From: a bacterium
GTDB lineage: Bacteria; Patescibacteriota; CPR2; UBA1875; JAJYID01
Length of the DNA: 64,000 bases
Reading direction: 5' to 3'
Assembly: GCA_021790235.1 (NCBI GenBank)
Contig: JAJYID010000003.1
Location: forward strand, 20,038-84,037
Position numbers and translations under genes: made by a program. Positions 5,564 to 52,845 of this stretch are shown in pieces (position 1 is the first letter of the stretch; each line of letters opens with the position of its first letter). The notes under the pieces are model-generated. The model was not told the DNA's origin. It was given only the letters and a program-made list of their open reading frames with translations, and made no database searches.

Positions 5564-6163
5564 TCAATAATCCAGACGGCCCTCTATAGCCCTAGAAAGG
5601 GTCACTTCGTCAGCATATTCGAGATCTCCACCAACTGGCAAACCTCTAGCGATTCTAGTGATTTTGATATCTAAAGGCACTACCAATTTTTGGATGTACA
5701 GCGCTGTAGCTTCACCCTCAATACTTGGGTTTGTGGCTAATATAATTTCTTCAATATTGCCCGCCTTTAATCTATTGATAAGTTCACGTATATATAAATC
5801 ATCCGGTCCGATTCCATCAATCGGAGAAATAACGCCTCCAAGGACATGGTATAAACCCTGGAATTTTCCTGTTTTTTCTACTGCCACAACATCGAGAGGC
5901 TCTTCTACCACACATATGATGGATTTTTCTCGTCTAATATCATCACAAATGTGGCACGGATCTTTCTCAGCGATATTTGAGCATATCGAACATGTCTCTA
6001 AACCCTTCTTTAAATCTAAAACGGCACTTCCAAGGGAGTTTAGATCTCTGTCTGAACTTCTCAAAAGATAGAAAGTAAGTCTTTCAGCGGTTTTCGGACC
6101 AATACCCGGAAGACTTGCAAACTCATCTATTAAGTTTTGGACATTTTGAGGGATAACTTGCAT
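5564..6163 (-). CDS. recR: recombination protein RecR
   Basis: HhH (LPGIGPKTAERL), C4 zinc finger (CSICSN..CHICDD) and Toprim block (ICVVEEPLDV..). Confidence 0.95.
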   Translation of the reverse strand: MQVIPQNVQNLIDEFASLPGIGPKTAERLTFYLLRSSDRDLNSLGSAVLDLKKGLETCSICSNIAEKDPCHICDDIRREKSIICVVEEPLDVVAVEKTGKFQGLYHVLGGVISPIDGIGPDDLYIRELINRLKAGNIEEIILATNPSIEGEATALYIQKLVVPLDIKITRIARGLPVGGDLEYADEVTLSRAIEGRLDY

Positions 6164-6181: not shown

Positions 6182-6472
6182 CTAAAATGGCATTCCGCCA
6201 CCACCCATCACATCTTTCATCATATTTTGAGCGATCTTTTGAGCTTTTTCAGTAGCGCTATCTACAGCATTCTTAATATCATTTTCAAGTTTTTGAACAT
6301 CATTGATAGTTTCTGAACTAATTTTAACAGACTGGATTTTCATTTCACCATTCATTTGTACCTTCACGTCTCCGCTTTCACCATCAACTATCTCGGCTCT
6401 TAATTTTTTTTGTATTTCTCTAGCCTTTTTGACGAATTCATATTGTTCTTTAGCTTTACCAAACATTGCCAT
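6182..6472 (-). CDS. ybaB: YbaB/EbfC family nucleoid-associated protein
   Basis: MFGKAKEQYEFVKKAREIQKKL..VKVQMNGEMKIQSVKIS is the YbaB pattern. It sits directly upstream of recR. AAGGGGA lies 8 nt before the ATG at 6472. Confidence 0.85.
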   Translation of the reverse strand: MAMFGKAKEQYEFVKKAREIQKKLRAEIVDGESGDVKVQMNGEMKIQSVKISSETINDVQKLENDIKNAVDSATEKAQKIAQNMMKDVMGGGGMPF

Positions 6473-6547
6473 AATATTTATCCCCTTTATTAACAAAAAT
6501 ATAATAACATTTCTACAGTATAATGAAAAGAGACTGTTTGGTTTAGA

Positions 6548-13466: not shown

Positions 13467-14807
13467 TTAATTTGAAGCGTGTCTTTTGTCAATACTTCTG
13501 AATGCTGTTTGTTCTTGGTGAAAAAAGAGGTTAACACTGCCTACGGGGCCGTTTCTATGTTTTCTAATAATCACTTCTGAAATTCCCTTTTTCTCCGTTT
13601 CCGGATTATAAAGCTCATCACGATAGATAAACATGACAACATCTGCATCTTGTTCAATAGAACCAGATTCTCTTAGATCTGAAAGAATCGGCCGCTTATC
13701 CGGTCTGGCCTCTACAGCCCTGGATAGCTGTGAGAGAGCGATAATAGGAACTGACAACTCTCTGGCTAGCCCTTTAAGGGATCTGGAAATTTCTGATATT
13801 TCCTGAACACGATTTTCGCTGTTTCTGCCCTGCATTAACTGGAGATAATCAACTATCACAAGTCCAAGGCCCTTCTCTGCCTGTAGTCGTCTGGCCTTGG
13901 TGCGCATTTCCAGGACGTTAATGAGAGGCGAATCATCAATAAAAAAAGGGGCTTCAGATAATGCGGCCATCGCCCGACCGATTTTTGGAAAATCATCATC
14001 ATCAAGATTACCGGTTCTAAGTTTCCAGCTGTCTATTTTAGCTTCTGATGCGAGTAACCTATCCACTAGCTGCTCCTTGGACATTTCCAGTGAGAAGAGA
14101 GCGGTTGGAATCCCTTCGTTCCGTGTGACATGTTGCGCAATGTTTAAAGCTAGTGAGGTTTTCCCGACTGAGGGCCTTGCCGCCAATATAATCAGATCGC
14201 TGGGCTGCAGCCCAGCCAATATATTGTCAAGCTCTTTGAAGCCGGTGGGAACGCCACGGAGTTTATCTTTATCTTTATGAAGTTCATCGATTCTTTCAAA
14301 TGATTCTTCCAGAATACTTTTTATCGCAATAAATTTGCCTTTCAGGTGGTTTTCGGCGACTTTAAAGATTTTTTGCTCTGCTTTATCTAAAACTCTGGAA
14401 GTTTCCTCTTTTTCTTCATAGGCAAGATTTGCAATATCATTTGATGATTCTATCAGCTTTCGAAGAAGTGCTTTGTCAACGACAATTTTCGCATAGTGGA
14501 TAATATTTGCAGAAGATGGAACTGAGTTTGCAAGATCGGAAATATAAGCTGCTCCGCCGACTGAATTTATAATCTTCTTTTCTCTCAGTTTATTTGTCAA
14601 GGTAACCAGATCTATTGGCTGATGATGTTCAAAAAGCTCAAGCATATTTGTATAGATAAGCCTGTGAGCATCATTATAAAAATCCTCGGCATTTAAAATA
14701 TCAGCGATTTTCAAAATTGCATCTTTTTCAAGCAAAATCGAACCTAGGACCGATACTTCAGCTTCTTCATTTTGAGGTGGTGTTCGCCCCTGCAAACTTT
14801 CAGCCAT
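13467..14807 (-). CDS. dnaB: replicative DNA helicase DnaB
   Basis: PQNEEAEVSVLGSILL N-terminus, Walker A ARPSVGKTS, and the ..IVDYLQLM.. and SQLSR blocks. Confidence 0.96.
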   Translation of the reverse strand: MAESLQGRTPPQNEEAEVSVLGSILLEKDAILKIADILNAEDFYNDAHRLIYTNMLELFEHHQPIDLVTLTNKLREKKIINSVGGAAYISDLANSVPSSANIIHYAKIVVDKALLRKLIESSNDIANLAYEEKEETSRVLDKAEQKIFKVAENHLKGKFIAIKSILEESFERIDELHKDKDKLRGVPTGFKELDNILAGLQPSDLIILAARPSVGKTSLALNIAQHVTRNEGIPTALFSLEMSKEQLVDRLLASEAKIDSWKLRTGNLDDDDFPKIGRAMAALSEAPFFIDDSPLINVLEMRTKARRLQAEKGLGLVIVDYLQLMQGRNSENRVQEISEISRSLKGLARELSVPIIALSQLSRAVEARPDKRPILSDLRESGSIEQDADVVMFIYRDELYNPETEKKGISEVIIRKHRNGPVGSVNLFFHQEQTAFRSIDKRHASN

Positions 14808-14846
14808 ATTATATTCTCCTATCCCTCCTCTAATAATTTTAAATAT

Positions 14847-16346
14847 CTAAACGAGTTCTCCTCCCAAGACGTCTAAAACTTCATTGAGATTTATATCATT
14901 ATTTTTTTCTTTATCTAACTCAAAGTTTTCTTTGACGGGTTCCTTCTTTGACTCTGGTCTGTTTTTTACTTCACCAACTTTACAAATAATTTTATATTTG
15001 ATGCCGCTGACCTTGTTTATGGCTTCTTCAACAACCTTTTTATTTTTTCTGTCTTCAATCCTTTCTTTATGAAATTTATATGGAAAAATAAGATGAATTT
15101 CCTCACCTACTATAACCGGCTCTGACTCTTTGACAAAAGCGTGGATCGAGTTGTTTTTGGACTTAATTTCAAGCAATATTTCATGCCATTGAAACTCCGG
15201 ATTATCTTTTTTTTCAAAACTCCTCTTATCCTTAGGCATATTGCTTATTTTCTCCGAAATTTGCTGACTACCATTACTATTAATATTTTCTTTTGCAGCT
15301 TCGAGAATATCTCCATCTAAGATATTCATAATTTTTAAAACGGCGACTTCAAGCGACAGCTGCGGGTATAAGGCATATTTAAAGGCTATATTTGACTTAC
15401 TCAATATCTCAACTGCGGCAATATATTTTGATAGTTTTTCTTTATCATCGAGTTCTTTTTTCATAGATTTTTGGTAGCTAACCAGTAATCCTTTTGTCAA
15501 CTGTCCAATATCTGCTCCTTGCTCTAACAGTTCTGATAAAAAATCTAACGCATTTTTCTTCTCACTAGTTTCAATCATATTAAAGAGTTTTTCTATTTTG
15601 TCACTGCCGACTAATCCAAGTAGCCCGGCTATGTCATCTTTTCCTATTTTTTTCTTGCTGCCTGTGTGCGTAGAAATCTGGTCAAGTATCGAGATAGCGT
15701 CGCGAAAACCGCCTTCACTTGCCCGGACAATCACAGAAGTTGCTTCATCATCAATCTCAATTTCCTCTTTCTTGGCAATATTAGTAAGTCCTTTTATAAG
15801 CTCAGTATCAGATATTCTTTGAAAATCAAAACGCTGACATCTGGAGATGACCGTTGCCGGAATTTTATGAATCTCAGTCGTAGCCATTATAAAAAGCGCG
15901 TGTTCCGGCGGTTCCTCAAGGGTCTTTAGAAGTGCATTAAAGGCTTCCTTAGTCAGCATATGCACTTCGTCAATAATGAAAACTTTATATTTGAGTTCGC
16001 TTGGAGAAAACTTAACTTTTTCCCGCAGATCCCGAATCTCGTCAATTCCGCGGTTTGATGCTGCATCGATTTCTATAATATCCAAAGCTGTCTGCTCGTT
16101 TATTGATTTGCAAGCTTCACATCTATTACAAGGATTTCCATCTTTTGGGTTTTTACAGTTGACCGCTTTTGCCATAATCCTCGCCACCGAAGTTTTACCG
16201 ATGCCTCTTGGTCCGCAGAAAATATAAGCATGCGAAAAACTTGAAGATTTAACGGCATTTTCCAATATCTTCATAGCTGATGCCTGGCCCAAAACCTCAT
16301 TGAAGTTTTGCGGCCTGTATTTTCTATATAGCGCCACTCTTGTCAA
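14847..16346 (-). CDS. dnaX: DNA polymerase III subunit gamma/tau
   Basis: YRPQNFNEVLGQ, GPRGIGKTS, zinc module CNRCEACKS, DEVHML, SRCQRF. TTG start. Confidence 0.95.
   Translation of the reverse strand: MTRVALYRKYRPQNFNEVLGQASAMKILENAVKSSSFSHAYIFCGPRGIGKTSVARIMAKAVNCKNPKDGNPCNRCEACKSINEQTALDIIEIDAASNRGIDEIRDLREKVKFSPSELKYKVFIIDEVHMLTKEAFNALLKTLEEPPEHALFIMATTEIHKIPATVISRCQRFDFQRISDTELIKGLTNIAKKEEIEIDDEATSVIVRASEGGFRDAISILDQISTHTGSKKKIGKDDIAGLLGLVGSDKIEKLFNMIETSEKKNALDFLSELLEQGADIGQLTKGLLVSYQKSMKKELDDKEKLSKYIAAVEILSKSNIAFKYALYPQLSLEVAVLKIMNILDGDILEAAKENINSNGSQQISEKISNMPKDKRSFEKKDNPEFQWHEILLEIKSKNNSIHAFVKESEPVIVGEEIHLIFPYKFHKERIEDRKNKKVVEEAINKVSGIKYKIICKVGEVKNRPESKKEPVKENFELDKEKNNDINLNEVLDVLGGELV
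15204..15227 (-). other. candidate -1 frameshift / transcriptional slippage site in dnaX (A8 run, upstream SD-like AAGAGGAG)
   Basis: mRNA reads AAGAGGAG-UUUU-GAA-AAA-AAA-GAU-AA. The -1 frame after the A run reads AGA UAA (stop). Confidence 0.4.
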
Positions 16347-16508
16347 GATAAAATCCTTTCTTTTGTTCTAAGGTAAATACAGTATAAACCTTATTTTAAT
16401 CAAGTTTAAGGGCGATTTGTGTGGTTTAGATGTTCATAAATCAGATTTTTCTGTGGACAAAGGATTTTGTATACTTTTATTTTCCTAAAAACCATATAGA
16501 CTAAAACT

Positions 16509-17285
16509 ATGAAACAAAAAATCATCAAAACAAAGGCCAAAGAAATCTTTACAAAGACAAATCTGCCGGGGGCTGACTATGTTATAAACCAGTATATCGG
16601 GTGCTCTCATGGCTGCACATATTGCTATGCCAGATTTATATCAAGATGGAAAGGACACGGTAACTGGGGTACGTGGATAGAAACAAAAATAAATGCACCG
16701 GATCTAGTGAGGGGTAGGAAGATTTCCGGAAAAGTATTTATGAGTTCTGTGAGCGATGCATATCAGCCAGCTGAAAAAGAGCTAATGCTTACACAGAGAA
16801 TCCTAGAAAATCTGGATAAGAGCACACAGCTTTCTATACTTACAAAATCAGATCTGATCTTAAGAGACATAGATTTATTGAAGCAGTTTAAAAATATTGA
16901 AGTTGGTTTCACTGTTAACTCGTTTAAAGGTAAGAGGAGAAACTTATTTGAACCGAGCTCTCCAGATACTTTGAGGCGTATCATGGCAATGAAAGAGTTG
17001 AAAAAACATGGTATTAAAACTTTCGCTTTTGTTAGTCCAATTATCCCCGAACTTTTTGACTTAAGCGAAGTGGTTAAAAATACTAGAGACTTTGCAGACT
17101 ATTTTTGGTTTGAGTTTATTAACCTAAGAGGCGCAGGGAAAGAGTTTAAAGAGATATTAAGTCATAATTATCCTGAAAGCCTAAAGACAATACAAGATAA
17201 ACAAAAGGTTAACCTTTATATACAAAATATTGTTTCTGAAGTTCGAAAATCTGGTGTGAAAATCAAAGGTATTGAGATACATTAA
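16509..17285 (+). CDS. radical SAM protein, SplB/COG1533-like (DNA-repair-photolyase-like family)
   Basis: INQYIGCSHGCTYCYAR CxxxCxxC cluster near the N-terminus, with size and layout of the SPL-like family. Confidence 0.75.
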   Translation: MKQKIIKTKAKEIFTKTNLPGADYVINQYIGCSHGCTYCYARFISRWKGHGNWGTWIETKINAPDLVRGRKISGKVFMSSVSDAYQPAEKELMLTQRILENLDKSTQLSILTKSDLILRDIDLLKQFKNIEVGFTVNSFKGKRRNLFEPSSPDTLRRIMAMKELKKHGIKTFAFVSPIIPELFDLSEVVKNTRDFADYFWFEFINLRGAGKEFKEILSHNYPESLKTIQDKQKVNLYIQNIVSEVRKSGVKIKGIEIH

Positions 17286-18292
17286 ATCTCGAGTTCTTTG
17301 ATAGGATCTATACCAGATATGCTAGGTGAATCTTCTCCAAGTGAACTTTTTTCTTCTTTTTCGATGGCGGGGTTTTCTTCTAGAAAAGCTGAGGAGTCTT
17401 TTTTTATCATAGTGTGTTCTTCGGTTGGTGGTAATTGTTCTGTATTTGCCCTTTCCTGTGCAGAACCCTCTGGATCTGCAATCTTTGCAGAGGTAATTTC
17501 TTCATTATTAGCGGTATTATCATTGTTTGCTTTCTCGGCTGCTTCTTTAGCACTTTTTTCTACTGCTTCCTTGACAGTCACATTGGTTTCATCTTTTGTT
17601 TGCGCCTTCGGTATCTCAGAAGTTTTTATGCTTTTCTTTTTAACATCATCCTCAAGATATTTTTCTTTAACCTCTTCTAGTATTTCCTTGTTTTCTTCCG
17701 GCAAAACAAGTTTGTCTTCCTCGGGTTTTTTTTCTTTTTTTGCTTCCTTTTCTCCATCATCATCGTGATTATGAATTATAGAATCCAAAGCCGCCCACCG
17801 GCTGGATTTATTAGCAGGCACAATTATTGCAGCTTTATTCCCCGGTTCTCCTTTATAATACGTCACCGATGCAAAAAGTATTTTGTATATTTTCCCTTCT
17901 GCTAAGACTGAATAACTTCCATTCTCATATGAAAGACTTCCGATTAGGTTTCTCCGCTCCACCGGTTTAATCTGCTTGTATATCAGAGAGCCGTTTTCGG
18001 CAATCGTAAGCTTTAAAGTATCGCCTTCTACAAGTTTCGACTTTGAGGCGTAGTTGGCCGGAACAGGATATTTTTTGCCGTCTGGGGCTATCATTTGATC
18101 GCCATCGAAAATACCTTCGATAATCTTCCCCTCATCTAAAATAGACAGGTCCTTGGCCGATTCCTTGTGATTAGCCTTACCTGTCTTTTCATCACCTAAA
18201 ATATCTAAAAGTAGATTTCTGGCTGAGTGTAGATTTCCTTCTGCAACATCAAGTAATTTTTGTATTTGTTTTATTCTTTTGTCTTCTTTCAT
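17282..18292 (-). CDS. hypothetical protein with a beta-rich central domain and a long K/E-rich low-complexity C-terminus
   Basis: 336-aa ORF. No motif recognised. Its stop overlaps the convergent radical SAM stop by 4 nt. Confidence 0.6.
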   Translation of the reverse strand: MKEDKRIKQIQKLLDVAEGNLHSARNLLLDILGDEKTGKANHKESAKDLSILDEGKIIEGIFDGDQMIAPDGKKYPVPANYASKSKLVEGDTLKLTIAENGSLIYKQIKPVERRNLIGSLSYENGSYSVLAEGKIYKILFASVTYYKGEPGNKAAIIVPANKSSRWAALDSIIHNHDDDGEKEAKKEKKPEEDKLVLPEENKEILEEVKEKYLEDDVKKKSIKTSEIPKAQTKDETNVTVKEAVEKSAKEAAEKANNDNTANNEEITSAKIADPEGSAQERANTEQLPPTEEHTMIKKDSSAFLEENPAIEKEEKSSLGEDSPSISGIDPIKELEI

Positions 18293-19575: not shown

Positions 19576-20130
19576 TTATTTCAATTCAACTGTTGCACCG
19601 GCTGCTTCAAGCTTTTCCTTTGCAGCGTTTGCGTCTTCGGGCTTAAGGTTTTCGGCAACTGTCTTTGGAGCGTTGTCTACCAAGTCTTTTGCTTCTTTCA
19701 GTCCAAGTTCTTGATTAATCTCTCTTACAGCTTTGATGGCGCCGATCTTGTTTGATCCTGCAGCGGTCAAAACTACAGTATAAGCTGATTTCTCCTCTGC
19801 TTCTTCAGCGGGTGCAGCGCCAGCGGCAGGAATACCTGCGACTGCTACGGGAGCTGCTGCAGACACGCCGAATTTTTCCTCAAGAACCTTTACGAGTTCT
19901 GCCATTTCAAGCACACTCATCTCTTCGATGGTTTTGACGAGATCCTTAAACTTCTTGGGAACTTCAACTTCTTTCTTTTCTTCCTTTTTGGGTTTCTCAG
20001 TCGGCTTTTCTTCATCTTTTGGCTCCTCCTTTGGAGTCTCTTCTGCTGTTTTTTCTGTTGCAGCAGTTTCTTCCTTCACTTCTTCCTCAGAAGTGGTTGT
20101 ATCGTCTTTCTTTGCTTCTTCGTCTGCCAT
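19576..20130 (-). CDS. rplL: 50S ribosomal protein L7/L12 with an N-terminal charged extension of about 58 aa
   Basis: C-terminal 125 aa is canonical L12 (..[22 protein letters not shown].., hinge, ..[26 protein letters not shown]). Strong SD AAGGAAGGAG lies 7 nt before the ATG at 20130. Confidence 0.93.
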
Positions 20131-52215: not shown

Positions 52216-52845
52216 ATGGCAGAAAAAAAAATAAGAGAAAATACACTTTTCACAAAAGAAATGATCAAAACCGTTATTATTTTTTTGGCAGTTCTCATAA
52301 TCTTAAAGTTTTTAATTTTAGAACCTTTTTTAGTCTTAGGGACATCAATGGAGCCTAACTTCCAAAATCAAAACTACATCTTTGTAGAAGGACTGACATA
52401 TCTATATTCATCTCCTCAGAGAGGCGACGTAGTGGTTTTCAAACACCCCGAAAAACAATGCAATGATTTCCTAAATGCAAGCTACATAAACCGTTTTTTG
52501 CCTTTTAGCCCCTGTACAAACTTTATTAAAAGGATTATTGGGCTTCCCGGTGAAACGGTAATTATTAAAAACGGGACTGTCACTATCAAGAACAAAGAGC
52601 ATCCGAATGGATTTACATTAAACGAGCCCTATATTCCAGACACCGCAAACTTCAAACTCCAAGGAGACGAAACAACTACACTAGGTAAAGACGAATATTT
52701 TACTTTAGGTGATAACAGAGAACCAAATGCCAGTTTGGATTCGCGCGAATGGGGTCCTCTGCCGAGAGATCATATCATCGGCAAGGCTTGGCTCCGCGTT
52801 CTGCCTTTAAGCGAAATAGGGCTCATCCCTGAACCGAAATATTAA
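52216..52845 (+). CDS. lepB: signal peptidase I
   Basis: GTSMEPN (Ser box), RGDVVVF, KRIIGLPGE (Lys box), GDNREPNASLDSR. Confidence 0.93.
   Translation: MAEKKIRENTLFTKEMIKTVIIFLAVLIILKFLILEPFLVLGTSMEPNFQNQNYIFVEGLTYLYSSPQRGDVVVFKHPEKQCNDFLNASYINRFLPFSPCTNFIKRIIGLPGETVIIKNGTVTIKNKEHPNGFTLNEPYIPDTANFKLQGDETTTLGKDEYFTLGDNREPNASLDSREWGPLPRDHIIGKAWLRVLPLSEIGLIPEPKY

Follow-up and report, generated by a model that had tools for sequence, protein, structure and literature searches.

Does a run of eight adenines allow the dnaX gene of a candidate-phylum bacterium to make two proteins? The gene lies in a stretch of 64,000 nucleotides (nt) from a member of the Patescibacteriota (GenBank assembly GCA_021790235.1, contig JAJYID010000003.1, forward-strand positions 20,038 to 84,037), which was analyzed over its whole length, is referred to here as the window, and is numbered from its first letter. 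A preliminary description of this stretch pointed out that the run (A8; other run lengths are written likewise) is followed closely by a stop codon in the -1 frame, and proposed that slippage on it, by the ribosome as in Escherichia coli or by RNA polymerase as in Thermus, might yield a short gamma form of DnaX beside the full-length tau form.

In E. coli and other enterobacteria, dnaX undergoes -1 frameshifting at the heptamer A_AAA_AAG with an 11-bp stem-loop, and the signal is represented in Rfam as the DnaX frameshifting element. That dnaX can give two products has been described for E. coli, Thermus, Caulobacter, and Chlorobi (PMC5009743, PMC3711429). Gamma of Thermus thermophilus is attributed to transcriptional slippage on A9 (Larsen et al. 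2000, as described in PMC5009743 and PMC1088944), and that gene has stops in both alternative frames (PMC5009743). In Caulobacter crescentus, gamma results from processing of tau by ClpXP (Vass and Chien 2013, cited in PMC5009743 and PMC4756838).

We report that A8 is strongly depleted from coding sequences of the window and of related genomes, and that the part of dnaX beyond domain III is spared. We assign a probability of about one half to the reading that the A8 of dnaX is truly slippery and, at this place, tolerated, giving, mainly through transcription, a minor gamma-like product of 381 amino acids (aa), and that the Shine-Dalgarno (SD)-like sequence and the hairpin near it are incidental.

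Position of the A8 tract in dnaX

The minus-strand open reading frame (ORF) at 14847-16346 is DnaX, the tau/gamma clamp-loader subunit of DNA polymerase III, since curated models match it above their cut-offs (NCBIfam PRK05563, 491 bits with a cut-off of 400; TIGR02397 dnaX_nterm, 418 bits with a cut-off of 250). Pfam matches extend from DNA_pol3_delta2 (residues 21-178) through DNAX_ATPase_lid (186-223) and part of domain III (236-288) to DnaX_C (385-472). Relatives were collected from a set of 5.8 billion proteins, which contained one close relative (protein P0002, locus L081, 78% identity) and about twenty at 52-64% identity; a metagenome scan with an alignment of the C-domain gave 42 loci, none of them close. 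The resulting clade set comprises 28 distinct dnaX genes, and the names of these relatives point to Patescibacteria and candidate phyla. In an AlphaFold2 model of the window protein, for which 25 clade sequences were aligned, domain III ends with a helix at residues 328-343 and the C-domain starts at residue 387, with a confident alpha/beta fold across 387-457. The parts of the gene are as follows.

14847-16346, minus strand: dnaX coding sequence, TTG start, 499 aa, tau-type full-length clamp-loader subunit
15309-16346, minus strand: residues 1-346, AAA+ module, lid, and collar (domains I-III), from Pfam and AlphaFold2 (predicted local distance difference test, pLDDT, mostly 80-95)
15195-15308, minus strand: residues 347-384, disordered, hypervariable linker rich in Lys, Glu, and Asn (pLDDT below 50; the clade is unalignable here)
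15207-15214, minus strand: A8 homopolymer (T8 on the plus strand), codons GAA AAA AAA for E378, K379, and K380, gene nt 1133-1140
15202-15204, minus strand: -1-frame stop codon TAA, reached as AGA TAA when the insertion of one A is simulated
14931-15194, minus strand: residues 385-472, DnaX_C, the C-terminal domain of tau (Pfam PF20964, E = 3e-9)
14850-14930, minus strand: residues 473-499, disordered Lys-rich tail and then the conserved terminal motif LDVLGGELV, with A7 at 14902-14908

At the site, the mRNA reads GAU AAG AGG AGU UUU GAA AAA AAA GAU AAU CCG, and the heptamer A_AAA_AAA lies inside A8 in frame and in the correct phase (15213-15207). A -1 shift on this heptamer, or one extra A, leads to AGA UAA and a 381-aa product ending in SFEKKR, as opposed to the 499 aa of the full-length protein; the +1 frame would give 411 aa, its stop being 30 codons further on. 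The run, the -1 stop, and the predicted 381-aa product ending in EKKR are all as the preliminary description had them. Its placement of the site past the clamp-loader core is borne out by the model, in which the tract (residues 378-380) belongs to the disordered stretch 347-384 that separates the final domain III helix from DnaX_C. Because the site sits at the end of the linker between domain III and the C-domain, the shifted product would, according to the model, be a complete gamma-like clamp-loader subunit; it would retain residues 1-346 and be devoid of DnaX_C.

Two other origins of the run were considered. An assembly or homopolymer error at A8 was ruled out, since the ORF is intact and the identical protein is recorded from two contigs. 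Phase variation at the DNA level was rejected by reasoning, as a genomic frameshift would eliminate tau, the product of an essential single-copy gene.

Depletion of A8 in coding sequences

The window has a G+C content of 39%, AAA accounts for 70% of its Lys codons, and 78 of 179 Lys-Lys pairs are written AAAAAA. These figures favor one account of the tract, namely that Glu-Lys-Lys is written in the preferred codons of an AT-rich genome, that no meaningful slippage takes place, and that tau is the only product. Codon shuffles point the same way, about 35% of them placing A8 or longer in the dnaX linker given its amino-acid sequence and codon usage, as does the fact that a -1 stop follows within one codon after 7 of the 35 runs of A7 or longer in window genes (20%). 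Moreover, ordinary genes of the window carry A8 or A9 (codon 29 of a ybaB-like gene; codon 3 of a signal-peptidase-like ORF), and slippage by E. coli RNA polymerase requires more than seven A's (Koscielniak et al. 2018, PMC6260861).

What such an account leaves unexplained is the scarcity of A8. Expected numbers of A runs were derived from synonymous-codon shuffles, and ORFs served as a crude gene call. In all 64 kb of the window, A/T runs of at least 8 number only 6, and the sense strands of its ~62 ORF-called genes hold 4 A runs of at least 8, compared with 13.7 +/- 2.8 expected. When exact lengths are considered, A7 is found 33 times (29.8 expected) and A8 3 times (9.4 expected); the observed/expected ratio is 1.15 for A6, 1.11 for A7, and 0.32 for A8, so that a sharp step appears at length 8. 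In the clade relatives (14 loci with 121 kb of coding sequence), the ratio is 1.22 for A7 and 0.42 for A8, and A9 or longer is found 0 times where 13.3 are expected. The step of depletion by run length marks the slippage-prone length of a genome, which in many genomes is 9 (Baranov et al. 2005, PMC1088944). In the window, the threshold is 8, one base below the typical 9. As sense-strand A8 is depleted and A7 is not, A8 is probably error-prone in this genome, and the A8 of dnaX is one of the few survivors of a real purge. A harmless A8 would not show a three- to five-fold depletion with so sharp a step from A7 to A8, and we consider it unlikely that the run in dnaX is inert.

Other surviving runs in window genes were the following.

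6404-6411, minus strand: A8 (ATA CAA AAA AAA TTA) in a ybaB/ebfC-like gene (~96-104 aa; ORF 6182-6496), where the protein should be structured; recR (5564-6163) adjoins this gene, and neither adjoins dnaX
17726-17741, minus strand: A7 and A8 split by one G, where ORF 17282-18292 is of low complexity and rich in Glu and Lys (336 aa, no family match noted)
52223-52231, plus strand: A9 in the signal-peptidase-like ORF 52216-52845, the true start of which may be further downstream

Selection on A runs within dnaX

If A8 is costly in coding sequence, where in dnaX does it persist? Observed and expected numbers of A runs of at least 8 were as follows.

28 clade dnaX genes, core: 0 observed, 4.1 expected
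28 clade dnaX genes, linker: 3 observed, 2.6 expected
28 clade dnaX genes, C-domain: 0 observed, 0.5 expected
28 clade dnaX genes, tail: 3 observed, 1.7 expected
Window and 14 clade loci, genes other than dnaX: 8 observed, 41.0 expected
Window and 14 clade loci, dnaX core: 0 observed, 4.2 expected
Window and 14 clade loci, dnaX after domain III: 5 observed, 3.9 expected

The sparing of dnaX after domain III has a binomial P of 0.002, or an estimated ~0.01 when the window and L081 are taken as one event. We considered whether disordered regions in general tolerate A8, and this was ruled out: disordered-like segments of low hydrophobicity are purged in other genes (1 run of at least 8 observed, 8.1 expected), whereas in dnaX such segments escape (3 observed, 2.5 expected). 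The pattern is suggestive of relaxed purifying selection on dnaX after domain III, because a slip in the core or in another gene yields waste, while a slip beyond domain III leaves a working clamp-loader subunit. It also argues that the selected cost arises at the level of expression, since a purge driven by mutational hazard in DNA alone would not spare dnaX, where a frameshift removes tau; the same consideration tells against the run being inert.

An alternative is that the tract is programmed, i.e., that A8 is a selected length and that A8 and the -1 stop are maintained to provide a defined fraction of gamma through Thermus-like slippage. In its favor, dnaX has 5 of the 13 surviving runs of A8 or longer in the window and the clade loci. 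The linker itself, however, is not enriched: its observed/expected ratio is ~1, a level that the tail matches, and the in-frame X_XXY_YYZ heptamers that the linkers of the 28 clade genes contain are also at expectation (11 observed, 11.3 expected). The linker is thus at neutral expectation, and the tail, for which there is no gamma logic, behaves alike, which indicates relaxed rather than positive selection.

Two further observations concern the distal part of the protein. The Lys-rich tail before LDVLGGE(V/L)V keeps A8-A9 as often as the linker does (L129 at codon 471, L132 at codon 495, and L126 at codon 571), and a slip there would cost only this terminal motif. The clade C-domains contain about twice the expected number of in-frame X_XXY_YYZ heptamers (25 observed, 13.1 expected), an excess probably due to codon use that is conserved within motifs like S-K-N-N.

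The tract in the nearest relative and in the clade

In L081, the homologous site reads CAT AAA AAA AAT AAT CCC. The nearest relative thus has, at the same place, A8 and an immediate -1 TAA, one extra A giving AAA AAA AAA TAA, as would be hoped for from the preliminary description. The run is shifted by one base, so that the in-frame heptamer becomes A_AAA_AAT; the A's are divided among codons as 2+3+3 in the window and 3+3+2 in L081, and the flanking codons differ. That exactly A8 and a -1 TAA are reached in both genes through different flanking codons could reflect selection on the tract, as programmed gamma production would have it.

The sharing of A8 by the two genes is nonetheless weak evidence of selection on comparison of their sequences, because synonymous sites are unsaturated (the same codon is used at 69% of identical residues, with 42% expected at saturation), AAA is the favored Lys codon (both genes use it at 33 of 47 shared lysines), and an A7 at codon 232, for which no function can be imagined, is conserved likewise. 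Nucleotide identity between the two genes is 56% in the linker and 84% in the core. Anything common to the window and L081 would, if anything, be independent of phase and point to transcription rather than the ribosome, because L081 lacks the SD-like element and the hairpin described below and its heptamer is shifted to A_AAA_AAT.

The preliminary description had made much depend on conservation across relatives, and beyond L081 this expectation largely fails. Throughout the clade, both the length and the sequence of the linker are hypervariable, and the two lysines (K379 and K380) are not conserved. Nineteen of the 28 clade genes lack a linker run of A7 or longer, and the linkers of 17 are free of in-frame slippery heptamers; such A runs as occur lie at varied distances, 8 to 53 codons, ahead of the C-domain, and no linker tract of A9 or longer was found in the clade. 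The absence of the tract from most of the clade and the scatter of the runs speak against a programmed one, as does the frame structure of the window gene, in which the +1 frame is open for 30 codons.

Gene order around dnaX is conserved in the clade (window 13467-17285; L081-L132) and consists of a divergent radical-SAM gene, dnaX, and dnaB, the last beginning ~40 nt after dnaX.

The SD-like element and the downstream hairpin

Could the ribosome be induced to shift at A8 as it is in E. coli? Such a mechanism would consist of -1 frameshifting on A_AAA_AAA, stimulated by an upstream SD-like element and a downstream stem-loop, at a high, fixed ratio of gamma to tau. In addition to the in-frame heptamer and the immediate -1 stop, two elements of the preliminary description bear on it.

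15220-15227, minus strand: SD-like AAGAGGAG (codons AAG AGG AGT) with an AGGAG core
15159-15198, minus strand: weak hairpin with UUUCAA..UUGAAA pairing, -9.8 kcal/mol, beginning 8 nt past A8

The SD-like element exists, with a 5-nt core upstream of the tract, but a role as stimulator is not borne out. Counted from the last G of the AGGAG core, it precedes the heptamer by 6 nt, whereas Larsen et al. are said to have placed such an element, in 1994, 10 nt from the heptamer in E. coli dnaX. AGGAG occurs at 1.04 per kb of coding sequence. In favor of a signal, the full 8-mer AAGAGGAG is uncommon, with only 3 occurrences in 55.8 kb of coding sequence. In L081, however, the corresponding codons are CAA AAA AGC and there is no SD-like element, and no consistent SD-like element was found upstream of poly-A tracts in dnaX of other lineages.

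The downstream pairing is likewise real as drawn, and likewise unimpressive as a signal: with a z of -1.3, the hairpin at 15198-15159 is matched by 20 of 200 shuffles that fold equally well, and no equivalent fold was found in L081. Folding upstream of, downstream of, and across A8 gave nothing beyond shuffles, and an upstream hairpin, which might promote transcriptional slippage, was looked for in the same way and not found. A search of 14800-16400 with Rfam cmscan on both strands at E <= 10 detected no dnaX frameshifting element, only three chance matches to unrelated families. None of the accessory features is improbable singly, and the SD-like element and the hairpin were chosen after the fact; on its sequence and setting AAGAGGAG is probably incidental, and so, probably, is the hairpin.

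With its supposed stimulators missing from the nearest relative, where the heptamer itself is A_AAA_AAT, and without a match in Rfam, the analogy with E. coli that the preliminary description had drawn falls away. The heptamer is of little help to it. A_AAA_AAA is a common shift site in insertion sequence (IS) elements (PMC4066793), but in E. coli it shifts far less readily than A_AAA_AAG does (Atkins et al. 2016, PMC5009743), and slippery heptamers that are not stimulated reach only 2-10 times a background of ~0.05% in that organism (Sharma et al. 2014, PMC4066793). We regard stimulated frameshifting of this kind as highly improbable. Because unstimulated heptamers are weak, A_AAA_AAA is the less shifty one, and no stimulator is supported here, transcription is a more likely level for a slip than the ribosome.

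Poly-A tracts in dnaX of diverse AT-rich bacteria

A wider view was obtained from 80 dnaX loci (L001-L080) recovered by a contig scan with the whole window protein. The scan was dominated by generic AAA+ motifs (FIIDEVHM), the best segment identity being at most 51% and the best near-full-length identity 39%. In the AT-rich subset (at most 45% G+C, n = 33), runs of A9 or longer between codons 345 and 430 numbered 12, compared with 5.9 expected, and elsewhere in the gene 0, compared with 5.3 expected. Tracts of A9-A10 at this boundary occur in 12 of the 33 genes. They typically have the form gAAAAAAAAA(A), encode E-K-K-x, and lie 20-40 residues past domain III; a -1 stop, mostly TGA, is found within two codons of 10 of 15 tracts. 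The carriers include Saprospiraceae and other Bacteroidota, Melioribacteraceae, Neomarinimicrobiota, Magasanikiibacteriota, metagenome-assembled genomes (MAGs) resembling the candidate phyla radiation (CPR), and SAR11-like genomes; examples at dnaX codons ~373-402 are L032, L035, L040, L048, L059, L072, L073, and L079.

Judged by composition, position, and stop codons, these A9-A10 tracts look like widespread production of gamma of the Thermus type, and a description of them at this breadth was not found in the accessible literature. Being common and fitting the Thermus mechanism, they raise the prior that the E-K-K A8 of the window is related to them, and together with the purge of A8 elsewhere in the genome they make the Thermus-like route of the preliminary description, an extra A added by RNA polymerase, plausible.

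Do they also make it programmed? The boundary-only enrichment and the nearby -1 stops favor this, and so does the acceptance of homopolymers of eight nt or longer as sites of transcriptional realignment, dnaX genes with A7-A10 being listed among them (Antonov et al. 2013, PMC3711429). Against it, exactly A8 at the boundary is not enriched in the diverse set (3 observed, ~5.8 expected), and unsaturated synonymous sites together with the bias toward AAA account for the resemblance of the window to L081. On balance, a tract maintained for a defined gamma fraction is possible but doubtful. Equally tentative is the broader proposal that RNA polymerase of this lineage slips on shorter runs than that of model bacteria, that the A8 of dnaX is a tuned generator of gamma, and that poly-A slippage at this boundary is convergent and widespread in AT-rich bacteria, candidate phyla included.

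Other arrangements of dnaX were seen in the same set. In L054 (a Clostridia MAG; locus nt ~2560-2630), dnaX is split into two ORFs: the zero frame ends two codons past A9, and the C-domain of tau continues in another frame, a reversed arrangement. The dnaX ORFs of L027 and L030 (Saccharibacteria) and L034 (Portnoybacteria) are ~365-370 aa long and end directly after the last helix of domain III; no C-terminal domain was found after them in any frame, and from their sequences they look like gamma-only genes.

Discussion

We favor the view that the A8 of dnaX is slippery and tolerated. RNA polymerase would occasionally insert one A within A8, and ribosomes would to a lesser extent slip -1 on A_AAA_AAA. 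Either way, the shifted frame would run directly into AGA UAA and give a 381-aa gamma-like DnaX with the full core and without the C-terminal domain, probably as a minor product amounting to a few percent or less. The run would have escaped the purge of its lineage since truncation at this point may be harmless or mildly useful, and it would not be tuned as a recoding signal.

Several points weigh against this view. The data show the anatomy of the site, the limits of the domains, the depletion of A8 across the genome, and how relatives compare; that slippage occurs, how often it does, that the truncated product is made, and that it is tolerated is what we infer from them. The counts are small, with 13 surviving runs in total, and of the five in dnaX, those of the window and L081 share ancestry; the purge statistics, moreover, depend on crude ORF-based gene calls. 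An A8 sits at the threshold of more than seven A's for slippage by E. coli RNA polymerase, which would suit an inert run, although productive slippage on A8 is known in some bacteria, e.g., in IS elements of D. radiodurans (PMC1088944). The recurrence of A8 with a -1 TAA in L081 would suit a selected one.

How does the site compare with known systems? As in Thermus, there is a single tau ORF with poly-A on the sense strand past the clamp-loader core, an extra A leads promptly to a stop and to a gamma-like product, and no RNA stimulators are needed. Unlike in Thermus, the run is A8 rather than A9, the only nearby stop is in the -1 frame, nothing here supports a 1:1 ratio of products, and most of the clade beyond the nearest relative is without the tract. 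With E. coli dnaX, the window gene shares an in-frame Lys-Lys heptamer past the core, a -1 stop one codon on, and an SD-like stretch upstream; it differs in having A_AAA_AAA as the heptamer, in the closer and unconserved SD-like element, and in having neither a stable or conserved stem-loop nor a match to the Rfam covariance model.

Two-ORF dnaX genes (Chlorobi and others, PMC3711429; L054 in the present set) also have poly-A at the gamma/tau boundary, where transcriptional realignment has been inferred. There, the zero frame stops after the tract and tau needs the slip, whereas in the window tau is in the zero frame and the slip would give gamma. The single-ORF genes with A9-A10 have in common with the window gene the codons GAA AAA AAA (E-K-K), the placement of these in the protein, and a -1 stop at most two codons away; unlike that class, which is enriched over shuffles and confined to the boundary, the A8 class of the window is not enriched.

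Poly-A slippage that is not programmed is known from endosymbionts such as Blochmannia, dnaX included (PMC3017870). The window resembles them in having a homopolymer in an AT-rich, reduced genome, with slippage products tolerated, but slippage in Blochmannia rescues genomic frameshifts on longer tracts, whereas the window gene is intact and would be truncated by a slip. The end product would be the same as in Caulobacter, a DnaX without its C-terminal domains; the route there is proteolytic rather than one of decoding, and the window data have no bearing on proteolysis.

In kind, poly-A slippage in dnaX is known biology, and the present site is at most a weak new case of it in an unstudied phylum, a modest and lineage-restricted example. 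If a gamma-like DnaX is indeed made, the theme of two products from dnaX would extend to the reduced genomes of candidate phyla, in which the composition of the replisome is unstudied, and the tract would be a handle on the minimum length at which a homopolymer still slips in these bacteria. The more useful outcome may be the two patterns in which the site is set: a clade that purges A8 and longer runs from its coding sequences but spares dnaX beyond the core, and clearly non-random A9-A10 tracts at the same boundary of dnaX in many AT-rich lineages.

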